A stretch of 64,000 bases of DNA from an uncultured delta proteobacterium (GTDB taxonomy: Bacteria; Desulfobacterota; Syntrophorhabdia; Syntrophorhabdales; WCHB1-27): NCBI GenBank assembly GCA_963810935.1, contig CAWEPK010000010.1, positions 128,001 to 192,000 on the forward strand, read 5' to 3'. Positions 18,001 through 27,000 of the stretch are shown here, in pieces. A program made the position numbers. Each line of letters starts with the position of its first letter. Positions within the stretch are counted from its first letter, which is position 1.

Positions 18001-21000
18001 AGTCGTTCAGTGCGTTGAGGCCCTCCTTCCGCTTGCCTTCTCTCAGAAGGATAAGGCTTCTGTATCCCAGGATGCGGATGTGGGCATCGTTATACTTGTC
18101 TCTTTTTGTCGCCTGATTCATAAACCCGGATGCGCTTTCTAGATCGTTCATCTTGTAGCTGGCCGTTGCCGCGAAGGCATAGGGGGCCGCAGCAGCAGGC
18201 TCCGCCTTTGCAGCCTTGAGAAACTCGTCGCGTGCCTTACCGTACTCGCCGCTACCCATAAGCCGCTTTCCGTCCCACATATCCGACCCGTAGGTAGAGA
18301 ACATGATCGAGCAACCGAGGAGTGCGCCCGCAACCGCGATGAAACCCAGCAAGGAGACCGTCTTCATCCGAATCCTCCCTTTTGATTTCTATACCAGTAT
18401 ATCGACATCACGGCTGTATATCAACGATACACGCCGGCCGGCACTCCTTGTATTACGGGTCACAGGCCATTAGCTCTCGGTTCCGAATACCGCCGGCGGC
18501 CCGTACTTTTCCGCGAAATACCCCGTCCCCTCGGACTCGTACTGGGCCACATCGCTCTCGTACTGCCCGACGTGGCCTTCCAGTAGCCGCTCCAGGCGGG
18601 GCAGCTCCGGCGGGCCCATGCTCGCCATCCGCTGCGCCCTGGCGTAACCCGGCATCGGGTAGTAGTTCTTGTATTTCCGGTAGTAATCGCTGAGCGCCTG
18701 CATGCCCTCCTGCTGCCTGCCCTGCCGCAGAAGGACGAGCGTCCGGTACGCGAGCAGCCGCATATACGACGTCGAGTTGCCGCCAACTTTCAGCCCTTCG
18801 TTCACGTACCGCTCGGCGTTCTGTAGATCGTTGGCCCTATATGCCGCCGTTGCCGCCATAGCATAGTTCTTCGCACTCGGGTCCGCTTGCGCGGCCATTG
18901 CATAAGCCTGCTCCGCTTTTCCATAATCGCCCTGTTCCATAGCAGTACGGGCATCCGCAAGGTCGTTTTTCACCCCGACGCTCGACGAAGTGGAGCACCC
19001 AAGGAAAACGGCCGAAACTACCGCAAGCATTATTAGCGCACCTACCGCTTTTCCCATCTTTTGTTCCCTCCTTCTACCGACCGTGGTGTTATTGCGGGAC
19101 CAAATATGCGTACGGTTTTAGTTTCTTAAGTAACGTTAGGCTTTTCCGGCGGGGTGTCAACGGAAGGCAATGCGGCGAAGCACGTCAGGCACGGGAAAAT
19201 GGACTGCGGTATGCGAATCCCCTCATTTGCCCTTGAACATTTTCCTGAGGCCCTCTCCTATGCCCTTCACGCCCGATCCGACCTCTTTCGCGGCCTTTCC
19301 ACCTATGTCGGTCGCCGCCTCGGGTATCGCTTTGAGGGGAAGACCCAGCTTTCCAGCCAGGCCGATCGAAATGCGGCGCATCACATTATCTTTGATATCG
19401 AACTTCGGGTTGTTCAGGTCGCCCTGAATGACAAAATCCATCGAGATTTCGTTATTGCTGTTCTTCAGAGAAGCGGCCACCATGGACAGGGGCACACCCA
19501 TTAACCGGTCGCGCGTCCCCGACCCGCTTTGGAATTGGAGCTGTTTCAGGACGGCCTTGCCGGGAGCATACAGCTTCTCGGAAGCGACCTTTACGGTCAG
19601 GTCGAGATCGAGGAACCCGTTCGTAATATTCACGGGGCTTTCCTTCTCGAAATAGGGCTTGAGGTCAATGATGTCGAGGTTGCGCACGCTTGCCTTGAGG
19701 TCCGCATCCTTTGTCTTGAGCTTAATCTTCCCGCTGCTCTTGAGGGTCCCGGTCCCCCGGTTCCCCGGAATGTCGGCACTCAACACGTACGGCGAAAAGG
19801 TATCGCCAAACGGAAACATCACATCTTCGACAACGAATCCGAAGTTGCGCAGTCTTACCAGTACGGGCCTTGCCGGTGTTTTCCCGTCGAGGTAATCGAC
19901 CGACCCGTTAACAACCTCGACCTTCTTGATGGTGACGGGCTCCGCCGCAGCCTGCCCCTGCGTCTTCTTCGATGGCGTCTGTTCCGCGGATAACTCGGGC
20001 GGCAGGACCGGGCTGACTATGTTTCCTTTTTTGTCGATCTCGACAAAGACGTATGGGTCCGTTAGGGTGACCCTGGAAATAATGTACTGCTTCTTGAGCA
20101 GCCCCATGAAATCGGCTTTTACCGAGAGGTTGCCGACCTTTATCACCTCTTTACCGGCACGGTTCTTAAGCGCGGCCCCTACCACCTCGACGCTGCCCCA
20201 TTTCAGGTCGATCCTCTCTATGGAGAAGCTTTTCCCCAGCCTGTTTTCGAGTTGGCTCTTGACGATCCGGTTCGCATATTTGACGAGAACCGCGATGGAC
20301 CCTCCCATAATGAAGATGAGGGCGGCAACGACGATAAGAAATATCTTTGACTTTTTACTGATCGGCAAGCGGCCCCTCCCTCCAAAGGCGCCCCTCCCTA
20401 AGAACCCCGGCGCCTTTTTTACAATTTAATCGGAATCCTGTCTTTATGTCAAACTAAGACACCGGTGGGATTTGCCGGCTTTTATGTTGACACGGTCCGC
20501 GCTTTGGCAATATAAAAATGGTCAGATAGCCGCAAAACAGGCTACAATAGGGCAATATGATCTCCCGTAGGGCTTTCCTTGCTGCAATGGCGAAGATGAC
20601 ATGCCTGCTTGCAGGCGCGGGCCTGGCGGACTCCTGTCTCTCCACGCTTGGGGGCTCCCGCCGCGCTCGCGGCGGGCGGGCGTGGGCTGCAGGCCAGGCC
20701 GATGAGGTGCTCCGGAACGCGCCGCTCGCCCGCTTCTGGACCTCGGTACCTTCCGCAGGCGGCAATTGCCTTGCGTGCCACGAGCCTTCGGAAAATCTGA
20801 CCGGCGCCAATTACGTCCACCCTGCAAATCTGGTAAAGTGCCTCCTTTGCGCGCAGAAATGCGTCATTCCGCCAGGGAAAAGCGGCAAGTGCAGGGCCAG
20901 GAAAAATATCGACGGAAACCTCAGAAGCCTCGTCTACGGCCGGCCCATCGCCATCCATACGGACCCCATCGAGAAGAAGCCGTTTTACCATTTCCTGCCC

Positions 21001-24000: not shown

Positions 24001-27000
24001 CGGCCGCGTCACGGTCACGGGTTCATCAGGCCAGGTCGCCGTATTCGAGAACGACGCCCTCGCGTTCGAGACGCAGGACAGGGAGATCGAGGCGTTCGCA
24101 CACCTCCCGGCCTTACAGCATACGCCTCCCCTCACGGACGTGCTCATCCTCGGAGGCATCGACGGCACGGTGAAAGAATTGCTGAAGCACAGGCCCGATC
24201 GGATCGATTGCGTGGAGCTTAACGAGAGAGAGGTGGAGATGGCGCTCTCGCAAATGCCGGCAGAGACGAGGGCGTGGGCCGCTGACCCGCGGGTGCACAT
24301 GATCTTCGCGGACCCTCGGCGTTTCATGCTGGGCGCAAATGTCTACGACATCATCGCGGTCGGCATGCCGGAGCCCGTTTCGGGCCAGGCAAACCGGTTC
24401 TACACAAAAGAATTCTTCTCCGCCTGCGCCCGCGTCATGAAACCCGGCGCCGTGCTGGCGTTGAGGCTGAAAAGCAGCGAAAACCTCCTGACGCCTGCGC
24501 TCAGGGGCAGGTTGGAGAGCATATATGCGTCACTGGGCGCCGTCTTCCCTTATGTTCTCTTCCTGCCCGGCGATACGAATATCGTCACCGGCTCTTTTGC
24601 CCCGCTGCCGGAAGACCCGGAGGTCCTTGTCGAGCGGTTGCGCAGCCTCGCCCTTCCGACGCTTTTCGTTTCACCGCCTTATATTCGTTACCTCTACGCA
24701 AACGACCGCTTTTTCGAGATCAGGGACATGCTGAAGACGGCGAGGGCGCCGATGAACACGGACCTCAGGCCGGTCTGCTACAAGTACACCCTTCTGATCT
24801 GGCTGTCGAAGTTCTTTCCCTCCCTGGCCGCGAAAGAGATGGGGCAGCGGGAGGGCTTATCAGGCCGCTCGTCAGGCATCCTGCTCCTCTGCACCGCCCT
24901 TTTCCTTATCATCGCACGCAAAAAAGCAGGTGTCCGGAGGGTTATGCTGGCCGCAGCCTCAGGTTTTGCAGGCATGGCCCTGGAATCGGTCGTTATCCTG
25001 GCCTACCAGGTCAAATATGGCGTGCTTTACCAGGATATCGGCGTCCTTCTCATGAGCTTCATGGCCGGGCTTGCGGCAGGCGCCTGGGCCGTAGATACAG
25101 GGGCCGGGGGGCGCATACGCTCGGTCAGGCTGCGGGCAGGCGGACTCATTGCGGCATTCTGCGCGCTTTGCGGCCTGGTCTATTGGCGGCTCCATTCGGG
25201 CCATGCGATGGGCCTCGCGGAGGCAAGCGCGGTCCTTGTTGCAGCGGGCTTCGTCGTTGCGGGGATCTTCGTCTGCGCGGGTCGATACGGCCTGCCCGAC
25301 CAGGCCGCGGTCGTTGCGCCGCTTTACGCGGCAGACCTCTTCGGCGGCTGCGTTGCGGCCCTTGCAGTGGGTCTTTTCGTGCTCCCTTCCGCGGGTCTCC
25401 TCACGGCTACCGTCTGGGCGGGCGCATCGACTATGCTTGCGCTCCTGCTGCTATAACCGCGCCGCTCTCGCGGCGTCCCGGCGCCCGTAGCTGCCACGGC
25501 AAGGTCGAAGACCTTGGCATTCTACTTTATCCTGACACCGTCGAGATAGACGAGAGTCCTGCTGATGCCGTGGAAGAAGCTGCGGTGCGCCCTCCTGCCC
25601 ATGGCGTAAACGGGCTGGAACCGGATGACGTGGCCCTCGTCTTCGACTAGTGAGATATCAACCTCGGTATGGTAATTATCGTAAGGCATGGTGAAGGCAA
25701 TGTGGTGAGGCCCCGCAGACAGGCGGATCGTCTTTTTGAGCACGTACCTGATCCCCTCGCCGCCCTCAGGCAGCCTCCCCGCCGTTCCATAGACTGGTGT
25801 GCTCTCTCTTGCGCCTTCCACCTCCCAGACTATCTTCTGCCCGTCCACGCTCAGCTCGAAGGGAAAGCCGCCGGGGGGCACCCGCCTTGACTCCAGGAGG
25901 TAATGTTCCCGTGTCGGGGTCTTCACGGAAGCCGTTACCGTGAGGTCTACCATGCCTTCGGGCGGGCCTTCCGCGTCTCCGGCCTCGGCAAAGATACCGA
26001 CCTGGGGCGCCCGTGCCGCCTGGCTCGCCCTTCCCCCGCAGGCGCTCAGGCAGGCGGCCGGCAGCGTAAGAAGAACGAGCGCACATATGAAGGAACGCAC
26101 ACTCATTTCGCCGCCTTCTTCTCCGTGCCGGTCTCCTCAGGGCCCCACGTCATCAGATAGGAGGCATAAAAGAAGAAACTCGCAGGCCCGCGTATGTCCG
26201 TGCCGGCCGAGCAGATGAAATGGTGCACTTCGCTGAAATTGACGATCGCTCCGATATTATATCCCGTATCGCCCTGCCCGCCCGCGATGGACGACGTCTG
26301 GTGAAACAACTCTGCGCCAATCGTCAGCCATTTCGTTATGTCGCGCTGTACGACCCAGCCGGCAAACCAGTAGTTCCTGTTGTCCACGCCGGGGTTTATC
26401 CAGTATCCTCCGCCGCCAAAGCTGGTCCACGGCCCCAGGCTTTTTTGAAGCCAGACAGGAAAGAACAGTTGCGGCTGGCCGGTGCCGAGGCCCCTTGCCC
26501 TGCTGCCTGTCGGCGCCTCCAGCAGCGGGAATGTACCGACCATGGGGACGTATTCGCTCTCCTGAATAAAGCGGTACTTGACGCCCAGCTCGACGTCGCC
26601 GGGGCCGAAAAGCGTGGGGCCCCCTTTCGGTCTGTCGTAAGCATCGGGAACTATGAGGTGAAGCTGGACGTTCGGCAGCAGCCCGTAGTCCCCCTCAAAG
26701 TGCGGGCTCGTGCCGGAGACACCGCTCTTGTCGCGCTGATACTGGGTCGCCGTATAGAATTCCCAGTGCCTGTATGCGTCCGTTTCCGGGTCGTCAGTGC
26801 GAAAAGGCGGACCGCCTGAGGCGGGTATAGACCAGAGCGCCACGGAAAGGAGCGTTAACCCGAGCGATATCCACGGCCCACGGTTCATCGTCCGCCCCCT
26901 CCCCTATATCACGAATGTAATGCCGAGGTCATCAGGCCGCTACTCGCCACGCCGCCAGAGCTGTTTGCCTTGCTTCGGCTTACTTTTGAGGGGCGCCCTT

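Follow-up and report, generated by a model that had tools for sequence, protein, structure and literature searches.

What does a membrane protein with a spermidine-synthase-like domain do beside the genes of an AmmeMemoRadiSam system? The question is raised by three consecutive genes in the window, a stretch of 64,000 nucleotides from an uncultured delta proteobacterium. The AmmeMemoRadiSam gene association was set out by Balaji and Aravind (2007), and a 2020 eLife paper uses the name "Memo-Ammecr1 systems." The genome-wide survey's note on this DNA had taken the last product, a 710-aa protein (g02590), as the general missing membrane partner of such systems. Our core reading, which we consider probable, is narrower: the locus would encode an exported module with its own dedicated docking partner. 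In the literature open to search, we found nothing on an exported AmmeMemoRadiSam system with a membrane partner; if export holds, chemistry thought to be cytoplasmic would sit in the cell envelope.

The three-gene set was recovered as the survey had noted it, with open reading frames on the plus strand at 20557-21753, 21681-23327 (the longest frame), and 23324-25456, and an ATGA that accounts for the reported 4-nt overlap between the last two genes. Both soluble products bear out their earlier annotation. The radical SAM enzyme (g02588) scores 333.5 bits against TIGR04337 (NCBIfam cut-off, 220). The fusion protein (g02589) has Memo and AMMECR1 domains in Pfam (197 and 177 bits) and exceeds the NCBIfam cut-offs for TIGR04336, protein B/Memo (242.1 versus 26), and TIGR04335, protein A/AMMECR1 (178.1 versus 99). 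Cysteines C160, C164, and C167 of the enzyme, the C-x3-C-x2-C motif, are invariant among 42 relatives; H111, H143, H194, H251, C297, and R418-G-C-I-G of the fusion are at least 95% conserved among 55. In these respects the locus resembles canonical AmmeMemoRadiSam systems.

Features of the locus, in window coordinates
Feature	Position	Strand	Basis
Radical SAM enzyme, AmmeMemoRadiSam type, exported subfamily (putative)	20557..21799	+	TIGR04337; C-terminus compared with 5 relatives
Putative Tat-type signal peptide of radical SAM enzyme, about residues 1-44	20557..20688	+	Read from sequence
C-x-x-C-H motif of radical SAM enzyme, residues 71-75, N-terminal extension	20767..20781	+	
Extra G in G run, frameshift in radical SAM gene	21732..21732	+	Relative L047 and public-run contigs
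Memo-AMMECR1 fusion, 507 aa from TTG, N-terminal Sec-type signal	21804..23327	+	Pfam, NCBIfam
Membrane protein, predicted helices 1-7	23324..23959	+	AF2 model, VIA-align, internal repeat
SpeE-fold domain, residues 213-505 of membrane protein	23960..24838	+	Foldseek, VIA
Membrane protein, predicted helices 8-14	24839..25456	+	AF2 model, repeat alignment

The pairing of the membrane gene with the system is not due to chance, a doubt that the earlier note had itself raised. Relatives of the 710-aa protein were traced to 79 loci, and system genes lie alongside in 69 of these (all three domains in 59, some in 10). In the window's taxonomic family, a TIGR04337 match lies no more than 3 kb from the membrane gene in each of the 14 genomes that carry it. 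The conserved synteny spans many phyla, and within the order the membrane gene is found in 67 of 96 genomes. Where it seemed unlinked, in five genomes, each had a Tat-signal enzyme and a signal-bearing Memo-AMMECR1 protein elsewhere. In the flanking sequence available for six loci, the radical SAM and membrane genes occur without Memo-AMMECR1. No neighbor outside the module was conserved across 15 loci; what the module needs, it must provide for itself.

Judged by sequence, the linkage is limited to one paralogous subfamily with export signals and does not extend to AmmeMemoRadiSam systems in general. With scores of about 500 bits to the window's enzyme, versus about 270 for unlinked copies, the linked copies form a clade of their own, which sets them apart from the canonical enzymes. 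The window's family includes 8 genomes out of 22 that lack the membrane gene, each with only one radical SAM copy above the cut-off. Three sets had been claimed for the genome under study; we found two, this one and a scattered set without signals, with its radical SAM gene at C9:149475-150467 and Memo (in two frames) and AMMECR1 at C8:645215-646605.

Signals were called by reading motifs and hydropathy. The window's enzyme begins with a Tat-type signal, S-R-R-A-F-L at residues 3 to 8, followed by a hydrophobic stretch, a basic region, and A-W-A, the putative cleavage site. The RR motif is present in 55 of 59 linked enzymes versus none of five unlinked copies; of the four exceptions, one runs into a contig end and the other three show Sec-like hydrophobic N termini. 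The fusion protein of the window carries a Sec-type N-terminal signal, MKRSLLLAVIAAALLSPSLA. Among 58 linked Memo-AMMECR1 proteins, 57 start with a hydrophobic segment, many with a lipobox cysteine, and the 58th is fused behind the radical SAM enzyme. Both signals also occur in all six loci with another gene order, and neither in the five unlinked copies (from this genome and four others). This pattern, with an export signal on each soluble part, is unlike that of canonical systems and suggests that both proteins leave the cytoplasm. TatC is encoded twice in the genome. The three Sec-type exceptions are distant relatives, and Sec export of an iron-sulfur enzyme fits poorly with cluster insertion before export. 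The survey had missed the signals on both genes.

Many members of the subfamily also differ from canonical enzymes in an extension with a C-x-x-C-H motif, present in 44 of 59 linked relatives, missing in 15, and found in none of the six loci with another gene order. It could be a heme c attachment site, although Pfam returned no cytochrome match. The genome has two Cytochrom_C_asm genes.

The membrane protein had been described as having six plus seven helices; the AF2 model (pLDDT 88.9) gives seven plus seven. Helices 1 to 6 form the N-domain and helices 9 to 14 the C-domain of a major facilitator superfamily (MFS) fold, with helix 7 leading out of the membrane and helix 8 leading back. VIA-align matches it to VMAT2 (9kqa_A; Z of 29.1, rmsd of 3.6 over 326 residues), and SotB, FLVCR, and NarK also match with Z of at least 25, differences among these Z values lying within ties. 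It resembles 14-helix MFS transporters (VMAT2, VAChT, SotB, and FLVCR; Z of 27 to 29 over about 330 residues), sharing the 6+6 repeat and the two additional helices at the center. It is unlike them in holding a 290-residue enzyme-fold domain between those helices and in lacking a Pfam MFS match in a scan up to an E value of 0.01. The repeat itself is detected with 94.6% probability, residues 6 to 175 aligning with 544 to 706, so that the two extra helices would have to carry the SpeE-fold domain outward. Lysine and arginine counts point the same way in 50 of 50 relatives, averaging 14.9 on the N-terminal side versus 5.7 on the domain side, and the loop after helix 8 (residues 532 to 539, ARKKAGVRR) has five such residues of its own. 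The domain is therefore predicted to face the periplasm. Within the membrane, E140 (helix 5) is nearly invariant and D671 (helix 13) invariant, acids that would suit a cationic cargo. The proteins that this fold matches best transport cations and drugs and are not known as SAM carriers. Neither the MFS fold nor the outward topology had been seen by the survey.

Between the helices lies the Spermine_synth match that had been reported (Pfam, residues 255 to 382, E value of 9.6e-17). The domain has the whole SpeE fold, including the N-terminal beta domain (Foldseek TM-scores of 0.72 to 0.79; VIA Z of 29.8 to 1uir), and homology to the membrane-anchored aminopropyltransferase model PRK03612 (NF002956) extends over residues 32 to 381, into the membrane helices. 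The degenerate motifs were as the survey described them, LGGIDG for GGGDGG and G-M-P-E-P for D-x-x-D-P. In the alignment of 50 relatives, the domain keeps its nucleotide-binding positions but not the catalytic Asp. The family retains the glycine-rich loop as G-G-G-x-[ED]-G, the ribose-binding Glu (E298) is kept in 43, and the adenine-binding Asp (D330) is kept in 49. Position 347, the catalytic Asp of SpeE, reads G in 30, N in 11, A in 4, and D in only 3, so that the suspected loss of this acidic residue holds for 47. Unlike SpeE and PRK03612, the protein misses all SpeE equivalog cut-offs (93.7 versus 472, 82.6 versus 260, and 60.6 versus 249.55) and has its domain set into the center of a 14-helix MFS fold, predicted to face outward.

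Support for the radical SAM enzyme docking onto the SpeE-fold domain comes from complex prediction. Three runs gave ipSAE values of 0.89, 0.88, and 0.89 (best of three controls, 0.00), with at least 93% contact agreement and partner pLDDT of at least 87; 116 of 157 solved complexes attain this mark, as do 2 of 215 mismatched pairs, counts that are rough here, our own alignments having been used. Among the predicted enzyme contacts are residues 169 to 180, which follow C167 directly, and Y206, the alignment counterpart of the first G in the GGE motif of pyruvate formate-lyase (PFL)-activating enzyme. On the side of the membrane protein the contacts include N387 after strand 5, the 417 hairpin, and the invariant E256; the lowest expected errors are those of N387 and L388 touching the cluster-loop surroundings and the GGE equivalent. 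In this contact loop E386 is conserved at 94% and N387 at 90%; on average contact residues are no more conserved than the rest (0.59 versus 0.58 and 0.79 versus 0.76). The SAM pocket of the domain (276-281, 298, 330, and 347-351) is absent from the confident contacts, so that these lend no support to a direct hand-off of SAM. Enzyme contact residues 337 to 340 read N-L-P-P or N-L-P-S in all four linked copies compared and H-L-P-P in the window, and vary among five unlinked copies; position 336 is a hydrophobic L or F in those four linked copies.

The export signals, the MFS fold, and the outward topology together move the reading from a membrane-bound substrate to a whole system that is extracytoplasmic. 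In this reading the radical SAM enzyme would fold with its iron-sulfur clusters in the cytoplasm and exit via Tat, while the Memo-AMMECR1 fusion would exit via Sec, as a lipoprotein in many relatives. The enzyme would then dock by the face that carries its cluster loop and SAM site. Since an enzyme outside the cell has no SAM, we propose, as a tentative preference, that the MFS part exports SAM, perhaps returning 5'-deoxyadenosine and methionine, and that the degenerate SpeE domain, with adenosyl-binding positions kept and aminopropyl transfer lost, would hold SAM and pass it to the enzyme. Periplasmic carriers would supply the electrons, in many members via the possible heme on the C-x-x-C-H extension. 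The signals, the synteny, the folds, and the predicted docking are computational results; export itself, SAM transport, SAM hand-off, and heme attachment are steps that we infer. The substrate of the trio is possibly polyamine-like or derived from SAM.

One can envision, as a rather unlikely alternative, an exported complex in which the MFS-SpeE protein handles substrate or product instead of cofactor: a cationic amine, a polyamine-like molecule, or an envelope lipid head group would pass or bind the MFS part, the SpeE-fold cleft would present it to the active site, and SAM would arrive by another route. Among the membrane-protein contacts are indeed positions on the substrate side of the methyltransferase fold (N387, the 417 hairpin, and E256), helices 1 to 3 have conserved charged residues (R21, E22, E31, R81, and R84) at their outer ends, and the best fold matches are the amine carriers VMAT2 and VAChT, albeit with Z differences within ties; Burroughs in 2019 is said to have tied Memo contexts to isoprenoid modification. 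However, SAM supply is left unexplained in a module without other conserved neighbors, and most of the acidic residues with which SpeE binds amines are gone. It seems improbable that the enzyme has the SpeE-fold domain as its protein target, or as a permanent scaffold, a residue of the docked domain being modified, for example in its conserved S-[AS]-E-N-x-W-T-P loop. Such a role would fit an enzyme that most resembles glycyl-radical-enzyme activases, which act on a protein loop; they are its nearest NCBIfam family with a characterized function, and PFL-activating enzyme (8fo0, E value of 5.6e-4) is its nearest solved relative by sequence. The six loci without Memo-AMMECR1 and the low expected errors at N387 and L388 would fit as well. 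Against it, an invariant Gly is lacking in the contact loop, where inspection by eye showed no glycyl-radical-type motif either, scores to activase equivalogs all fall far under the NCBIfam cut-offs (for example, 55.2 versus 231.75), and the MFS part and the kept nucleotide pocket would have no role.

Far harder to credit is a cytoplasmic arrangement, with signals inactive or topology reversed and the 710-aa protein a polyamine synthase or transporter that merely shares the operon. The Spermine_synth match above the Pfam cut-off and the PRK03612 homology would be accounted for, but signals on two proteins and an independent topology argument all point outward, the signals are confined to linked copies, the catalytic Asp and every SpeE equivalog cut-off are missed, and the predicted complex passes its controls. 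Least credible of all is the survey's view of a general membrane partner. The adjacency on which it drew is real and widespread, and synteny and complex prediction bear out a partner dedicated to this set; signal-less sets, including the second set of this genome, have no such partner, however, and neither do the eight genomes of the window's family with a canonical enzyme. To our knowledge, Memo and AMMECR1 occur in eukaryotes and most archaea without a membrane protein of this type. The linked subfamily differs from canonical systems also in an obligate fourth component, the MFS-SpeE protein.

The likeness to PFL-activating enzyme extends to a small radical SAM core. Activases take up a protein partner at the open face of this core, and on the window's enzyme the domain of the membrane protein is predicted to occupy that face. 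Unlike activases, the latter has an N-terminal four-cysteine motif (C95, C98, C102, and C112), a C-terminal cysteine pair, and an export signal, and no glycyl-radical enzyme was found near the locus.

Two details of the reading frames deserve mention. For the Memo-AMMECR1 gene, the most likely start codon is the TTG at 21804. The assembled radical SAM frame stops at 21753, and by comparison with five relatives its conserved C terminus continues in another frame to 21799. The G run at 21732 is GGG in the window versus GG in a 95%-identical relative, and the extra G is absent in contigs from all four public runs checked (one contig each at full depth, all from one study), which makes the frameshift near the 3' end of the gene probably an assembly error.

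Three head-to-tail genes on the + strand of the window, the first from 20557, encode a radical SAM enzyme, a Memo-AMMECR1 fusion and a 710-aa membrane protein. Open reading frames and matches to TIGR04337, TIGR04336, TIGR04335 and Spermine_synth bear out the three-gene set claimed by the genome-wide survey's note, with corrections, and the overlap it had claimed between genes 2 and 3 is present in the sequence as ATGA. The enzyme scores 333.5 bits with TIGR04337 (cut-off 220), the fusion 242.1 with TIGR04336 (cut-off 26) and 178.1 with TIGR04335 (cut-off 99), and Pfam places Memo at 197 bits and AMMECR1 at 177 bits on the same protein; enzyme, Memo and AMMECR1 are thus all above their cut-offs in adjoining genes, as expected of AmmeMemoRadiSam. 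The cysteines of the enzyme's C-x3-C-x2-C (C160, C164 and C167) are invariant across 42 sequences. No activase equivalog cut-off is reached by the enzyme, the best being TIGR02493 at 55.2 against 231.75. The module is a variant of the known but unexplained AmmeMemoRadiSam system: whereas the canonical form (a working description of ours and no curated rule) is soluble and signal-free, the window's enzyme and Memo-AMMECR1 protein bear signals. Three sets had been claimed for this genome; only two TIGR04337 matches exceed the cut-off, on the window's contig (C10) and on contig C9, and Memo and AMMECR1 each have two loci, in the window and at C8:645215-646605.

As assembled, the radical SAM frame meets a stop at 21753. 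The enzymes of relatives are 15 residues longer, with a conserved C-A-F-C...G-V-W end, and the window holds this stretch in another frame that ends at 21799. The frame change comes down to one extra G at 21732 in a run of G (GGG in the window, GG in a relative with a 95%-identical enzyme), which shifts the last 15 codons. Four public soil-metagenome runs from one study, which may include the sample behind the window's assembly, each hold one contig in which a base is missing at 21732, at full depth; around this position it is otherwise identical to the window. Because the base is absent from these contigs, the frameshift is most likely an assembly error and not a broken gene. With the radical SAM stop restored at 21799, the start of the Memo-AMMECR1 gene most likely falls on a TTG codon. 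Split genes are also seen in relatives (loci L029, L047, L051 and L058) from similar MAG series, so these assemblies may often carry indel errors. The Memo of the signal-less set on C8 is likewise split over two frames, which may be another such indel. A promoter and terminator scan of 20300-25700 did not support operon boundaries, with 2 promoter-like sites where shuffles gave 1.2 ± 1.1, and 5 terminator-like sites where they gave 5.5 ± 2.0.

Features of the module, its surroundings and selected relatives (plain coordinates refer to the window, C8 to a contig of the same genome, L numbers to loci with relatives of the 710-aa protein)
Feature	Position	Strand	Remark
DUF748/AsmA-like gene	19223-20368	-	flanks operon
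C-x-x-C-H motif	20767-20781	+	enzyme residues 71-75, N-terminal extension
Memo-AMMECR1 gene start	TTG at 21804	+	4 nt after restored radical SAM stop
710-aa protein gene	23324-25456	+	ATGA overlap with Memo-AMMECR1 gene
ORF, 194 aa	25522-26106	-	no Pfam or NCBIfam match
ORF, 261 aa	26103-26888	-	no Pfam or NCBIfam match
YhdP/AsmA-like gene	26797-30741	+	flanks operon
Second membrane protein with SpeE-like domain	C8:201689-203260		524-aa frame
Memo of signal-less set	C8:645780-646653		split over two frames
Cytochrome c gene	L013 9154-9585		after Rosettibacter member
DsbD_2 gene	L068 6220-6894		beside member with Sec-type signal
DsbD_2 gene	L074 12052-12678		beside member with Sec-type signal
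TatC gene	L077 5970-6665		beside archaeal member
Radical SAM, Memo and AMMECR1 in one frame	L068 9180-11726	-	849 aa, Omnitrophota MAG

An AlphaFold2 model of the 710-aa protein (50 relatives; pLDDT 88.9, pTM 0.88) places a globular domain (residues 213-505) between two sets of seven helices, in place of the 6 + 7 helices claimed earlier. Pfam Spermine_synth matches residues 255-382 above its cut-off (E 9.6e-17; 61.6 against 22.9), and all NCBIfam SpeE equivalogs stay below theirs: TIGR00417 at 60.6 against 249.55, NF002010 at 82.6 against 260 and, as the best, the membrane-anchored NF002956 at 93.7 against 472 bits with residues 32-381 aligned. The domain has the full SpeE fold, including the N-terminal beta domain (Foldseek TM-score 0.72-0.79), and aligns with 1uir_A at a VIA-align Z of 29.8 and an rmsd of 2.3 over 267 residues. 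The SpeE motif readings in the survey's note, GGIDG for GGGDG and G-M-P-E-P for D-x-x-D-P, hold. Across the family G-G-G-x-[ED]-G is kept, as are E298 (43/50) and D330 (49/50), positions that hold the adenosyl part in SpeE. The position of the catalytic Asp of D-x-x-D-P in SpeE structures is G347 in the window and, among the 50 relatives, G in 30, N in 11, A in 4 and D in 3. The stretch N-R-F-Y-T-K-E-F-F is invariant or nearly so in relatives.

The membrane part has the MFS fold: it aligns with VMAT2 (9kqa_A) at a VIA-align Z of 29.1 and an rmsd of 3.6 over 326 residues, with VAChT, SotB, FLVCR and NarK at Z 25-27 and with many MFS chains at Z 22-27, against a background for helical models that the tool puts at about Z 14. 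Pfam and NCBIfam scans at E up to 0.01 gave no MFS sequence family for it. When the two halves were compared with hhalign, residues 6-175 aligned with 544-706 (94.6% probability, E 7e-8); the MFS halves are therefore formed by helices 1-6 and 9-14, and helices 7 and 8 are, in the model, extra ones that carry the SpeE-fold domain. MFS proteins have both ends and the central loop in the cytoplasm, and since helices 7 and 8 are extra, the SpeE-fold domain would lie outside. The positive-inside count agrees with this outward orientation: on average 14.9 K+R lie on the side of the N-terminus and 5.7 on that of the domain, with the same direction in 50/50 relatives. Another membrane protein of this genome, encoded on C8, also has a SpeE-like domain; its N-terminal helices are followed by G-G-G-G-Y and D-A-F-N-D. 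phmmer found no match between it and the 710-aa protein at E 1e-3, and it was not seen together with any AmmeMemoRadiSam gene.

How tightly is this protein bound to the system? A scan of one genome per species gave 253 stretches with relatives of the 710-aa protein, and the best 80, in 79 loci, were analysed. Radical SAM, Memo and AMMECR1 domains all lie in the flanks of 59 of these 79 loci; 56 of the 59 follow the window's order (52 flagged with order and strand, 4 by coordinates), and 3 have the set downstream on the other strand. Part of the set is found in 10 loci, six with the enzyme only (Aminicenantes, one deltaproteobacterial MAG and one archaeon), two with Memo-AMMECR1 only and two with AMMECR1 only (short contigs). 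The other 10 hold no system gene, 4 of them with less than 250 bases upstream; in 5 of the 6 that remain, a genome-wide search found a Tat-signal enzyme and then a signal-bearing Memo-AMMECR1 elsewhere (5/5), at loci that stop inside the Memo-AMMECR1 gene and may hold a second membrane gene.

Family- and order-level genome searches were also used to count linkage. A full-length relative of the membrane protein is encoded in 67 of the 96 genomes of the window's order, in two tiers of 61-91% and 26-31% identity. In the second tier, six loci begin with the membrane gene, continue with an enzyme that has a Tat signal and end with a Memo-AMMECR1 that also has a signal; all six lack C-x-x-C-H. In the window's family, a TIGR04337 match lies at most 3 kb from the membrane gene in 14/14 genomes, and the 8 genomes without the membrane gene have one TIGR04337 copy above the cut-off or none. 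The survey's note had worried that an adjacency of about 8% might be partly chance; that share is low because whole Pfam families were counted, and in the exported subfamily the link between membrane gene and AmmeMemoRadiSam is close to obligate. Beyond the window's order, the best 80 of the 253 relatives place the module in Ignavibacteria, Bacteroidota, Acidobacteriota, Aminicenantes, Omnitrophota, Latescibacterota, KSB1 and one archaeon. As far as is known these groups are anaerobes, a lifestyle that would suit an oxygen-sensitive cluster exposed outside the cell.

Conservation stops at the edges of the module: no Pfam family recurs among 61 flanking proteins from 15 loci. The operon in the window is flanked by DUF748/AsmA-like and YhdP/AsmA-like genes, families tied to envelope lipid transport. 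Since no family recurs in the 15 other loci, where these genes were not seen, we rejected them as module parts; the neighborhood may be a coincidence. Two ORFs directly downstream of the operon, on the opposite strand, match no Pfam or NCBIfam family. Single neighbors elsewhere include a cytochrome c, DsbD_2 beside two members with Sec-type signals, TatC, and Fer4 plus CCG (L071). The DsbD_2, TatC and cytochrome c genes hint at export and electron supply and are too few to count.

Export signals, judged by motif and a hydrophobic stretch in the N-terminus, set the linked sets apart. The window's enzyme begins M-I-S-R-R-A-F-L (S-R-R-A-F-L being residues 3-8) and then runs through a hydrophobic and a basic stretch to A-W-A, a twin-arginine pattern. 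Read from its TTG, the Memo-AMMECR1 protein has a Sec-type signal, MKRSLLLAVIAAALLSPSLA, at its N-terminus. R4 and R5 occur in all 42 aligned rows, but these rows were picked for the motif, and the unbiased count among the best 80 of the 253 relatives is RR-x-[F/L...] in 55 of 59 linked radical SAM genes with a scorable N-terminus; of the other four, one is cut by a contig end and three have Sec-like hydrophobic N-termini. In the same sample, 57 of 58 linked Memo-AMMECR1 N-termini contain a hydrophobic stretch, which in many of them ends with a lipobox Cys, and the 58th is fused behind its enzyme. In a paired control (this genome plus four with linked sets), neither signal was found in the unlinked TIGR04337 copies (0/5). 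The enzyme has both the twin-arginine motif and the hydrophobic stretch, and the genome has Tat machinery (two TatC genes). We infer from the sequences that the enzyme and the Memo-AMMECR1 protein are exported. The reading that g02590, the 710-aa protein, is the missing membrane partner of AmmeMemoRadiSam is partly supported; as a general partner of the system it fails, since signal-less copies in this genome and in four others lack it. At L068, radical SAM, Memo and AMMECR1 share one frame with a Sec-like N-terminus. The genome of locus L057 (G305) has an exported-type TIGR04337 copy only, with no signal-less copy at E up to 1e-20, so the exported set can be a genome's sole set.

The enzyme's N-terminal extension carries C-x-x-C-H, found in 44 of 59 linked relatives (best 80 of 253), with A-P-x-A-R-[FY]-W before it in 47 of 59 and a conserved H-x-H after it; the signal-less paralogues lack the extension. 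Pfam gave no cytochrome family match for the enzyme, and the genome has two members of the cytochrome c maturation family Cytochrom_C_asm. The motif could be a haem c site, unusual, if so, on a Tat substrate.

For complex prediction, a fragment of the membrane protein (residues 203-512) was paired with one of the enzyme (45-390), and an alignment was supplied for each. In three runs ipSAE came to 0.89, 0.88 and 0.89, and none of three controls exceeded 0.00; at least 93% of contacts were common to the runs, and partner pLDDT was at least 87. Of 157 solved complexes, 116 attain the mark applied, as do 2 of 215 mismatched pairs, counts that are rough with own alignments. The prediction supports binding of the enzyme to the SpeE-fold domain. 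Confident contacts on the enzyme include 131-137, 169-180 (directly after C167, the third cluster Cys), Y206, 330-344 and 366-368. In PFL-activating enzyme, the residue aligned with Y206 is the first G of G-G-E, a motif that helps hold SAM there. Residues 337-340 read N-L-P-P or N-L-P-S, with L or F at 336, in 4/4 linked copies compared and H-L-P-P in the window; they are variable in 5 unlinked copies. On the membrane protein the contacts include Q237, the invariant E256, N387, Y453, Y456, D461 and R462. Contact residues are on average not more conserved than the rest, and SAM-pocket residues of the SpeE-fold domain are absent among the confident contacts. From the modeled interface, the domain would sit over the cluster and SAM face of the enzyme.

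It seems very probable to us that the enzymes act outside the cytoplasmic membrane and that the MFS-SpeE protein is their dedicated docking partner; the most striking implication would be periplasmic radical SAM chemistry, and the computation behind it is well supported. Three distant members pose a real difficulty for export of a folded enzyme, as their iron-sulfur enzyme has a signal of the Sec type. SAM and reductant are missing outside and the module has no other conserved gene, and the MFS part is therefore the obvious conduit. We imagine, giving the idea slightly less than an even chance, that the MFS part exports SAM and perhaps takes cleavage products back, and that the degenerate SpeE-fold domain holds SAM ready for the docked enzyme. 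Electrons may enter via the possible haem on the extension, a route that is optional at best, as C-x-x-C-H is absent in whole subgroups. The Memo-AMMECR1 pair would act on an envelope or extracellular substrate. Taken together, this chain, in which exported SAM passes via the SpeE-fold domain to a docked Tat enzyme and Memo-AMMECR1 works on an envelope substrate, is more tentative than its SAM-export step.

The conserved charges at the outer ends of helices 1-3, with mid-membrane E140 and D671, argue for another use of the same protein, to carry or present the substrate, a cationic amine or a lipid head group; we consider this rather unlikely. The docked SpeE-fold domain might also be the protein target of an activase-like enzyme, which we hold to be improbable. 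To our knowledge, all characterized radical SAM enzymes are cytoplasmic, where SAM and low-potential reductants occur. A widespread exported subfamily with a membrane supply protein of its own would break this rule and would imply that SAM is exported as well.

The main comparison of Memo contexts, by Burroughs and colleagues in 2019, is said to tie them to nucleotide-base and isoprenoid modification. Titles and abstracts, a body that does not cover that comparison, yielded neither an exported or periplasmic radical SAM enzyme nor a function for AmmeMemoRadiSam, and our literature search found no transmembrane fusion of spermidine synthase and MFS. Balaji and Aravind (2007) associate the AMMECR1 gene with two others, one for a radical SAM enzyme and one for a ring-opening-dioxygenase-like protein of what is now the Memo family, and propose RNA base modification; a 2020 eLife paper cites [quoted passage not shown] Memo and AMMECR1 have human homologues, MEMO1 and AMMECR1, whose biochemical function is unexplained. 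If our reading is true, the trio gains its first cellular address and a purifiable complex: the exported variant comes with a defined compartment, a complex that is predicted to be stable and has named contacts, and cultured hosts among the relatives, such as the isolate Rosettibacter primus (L013).
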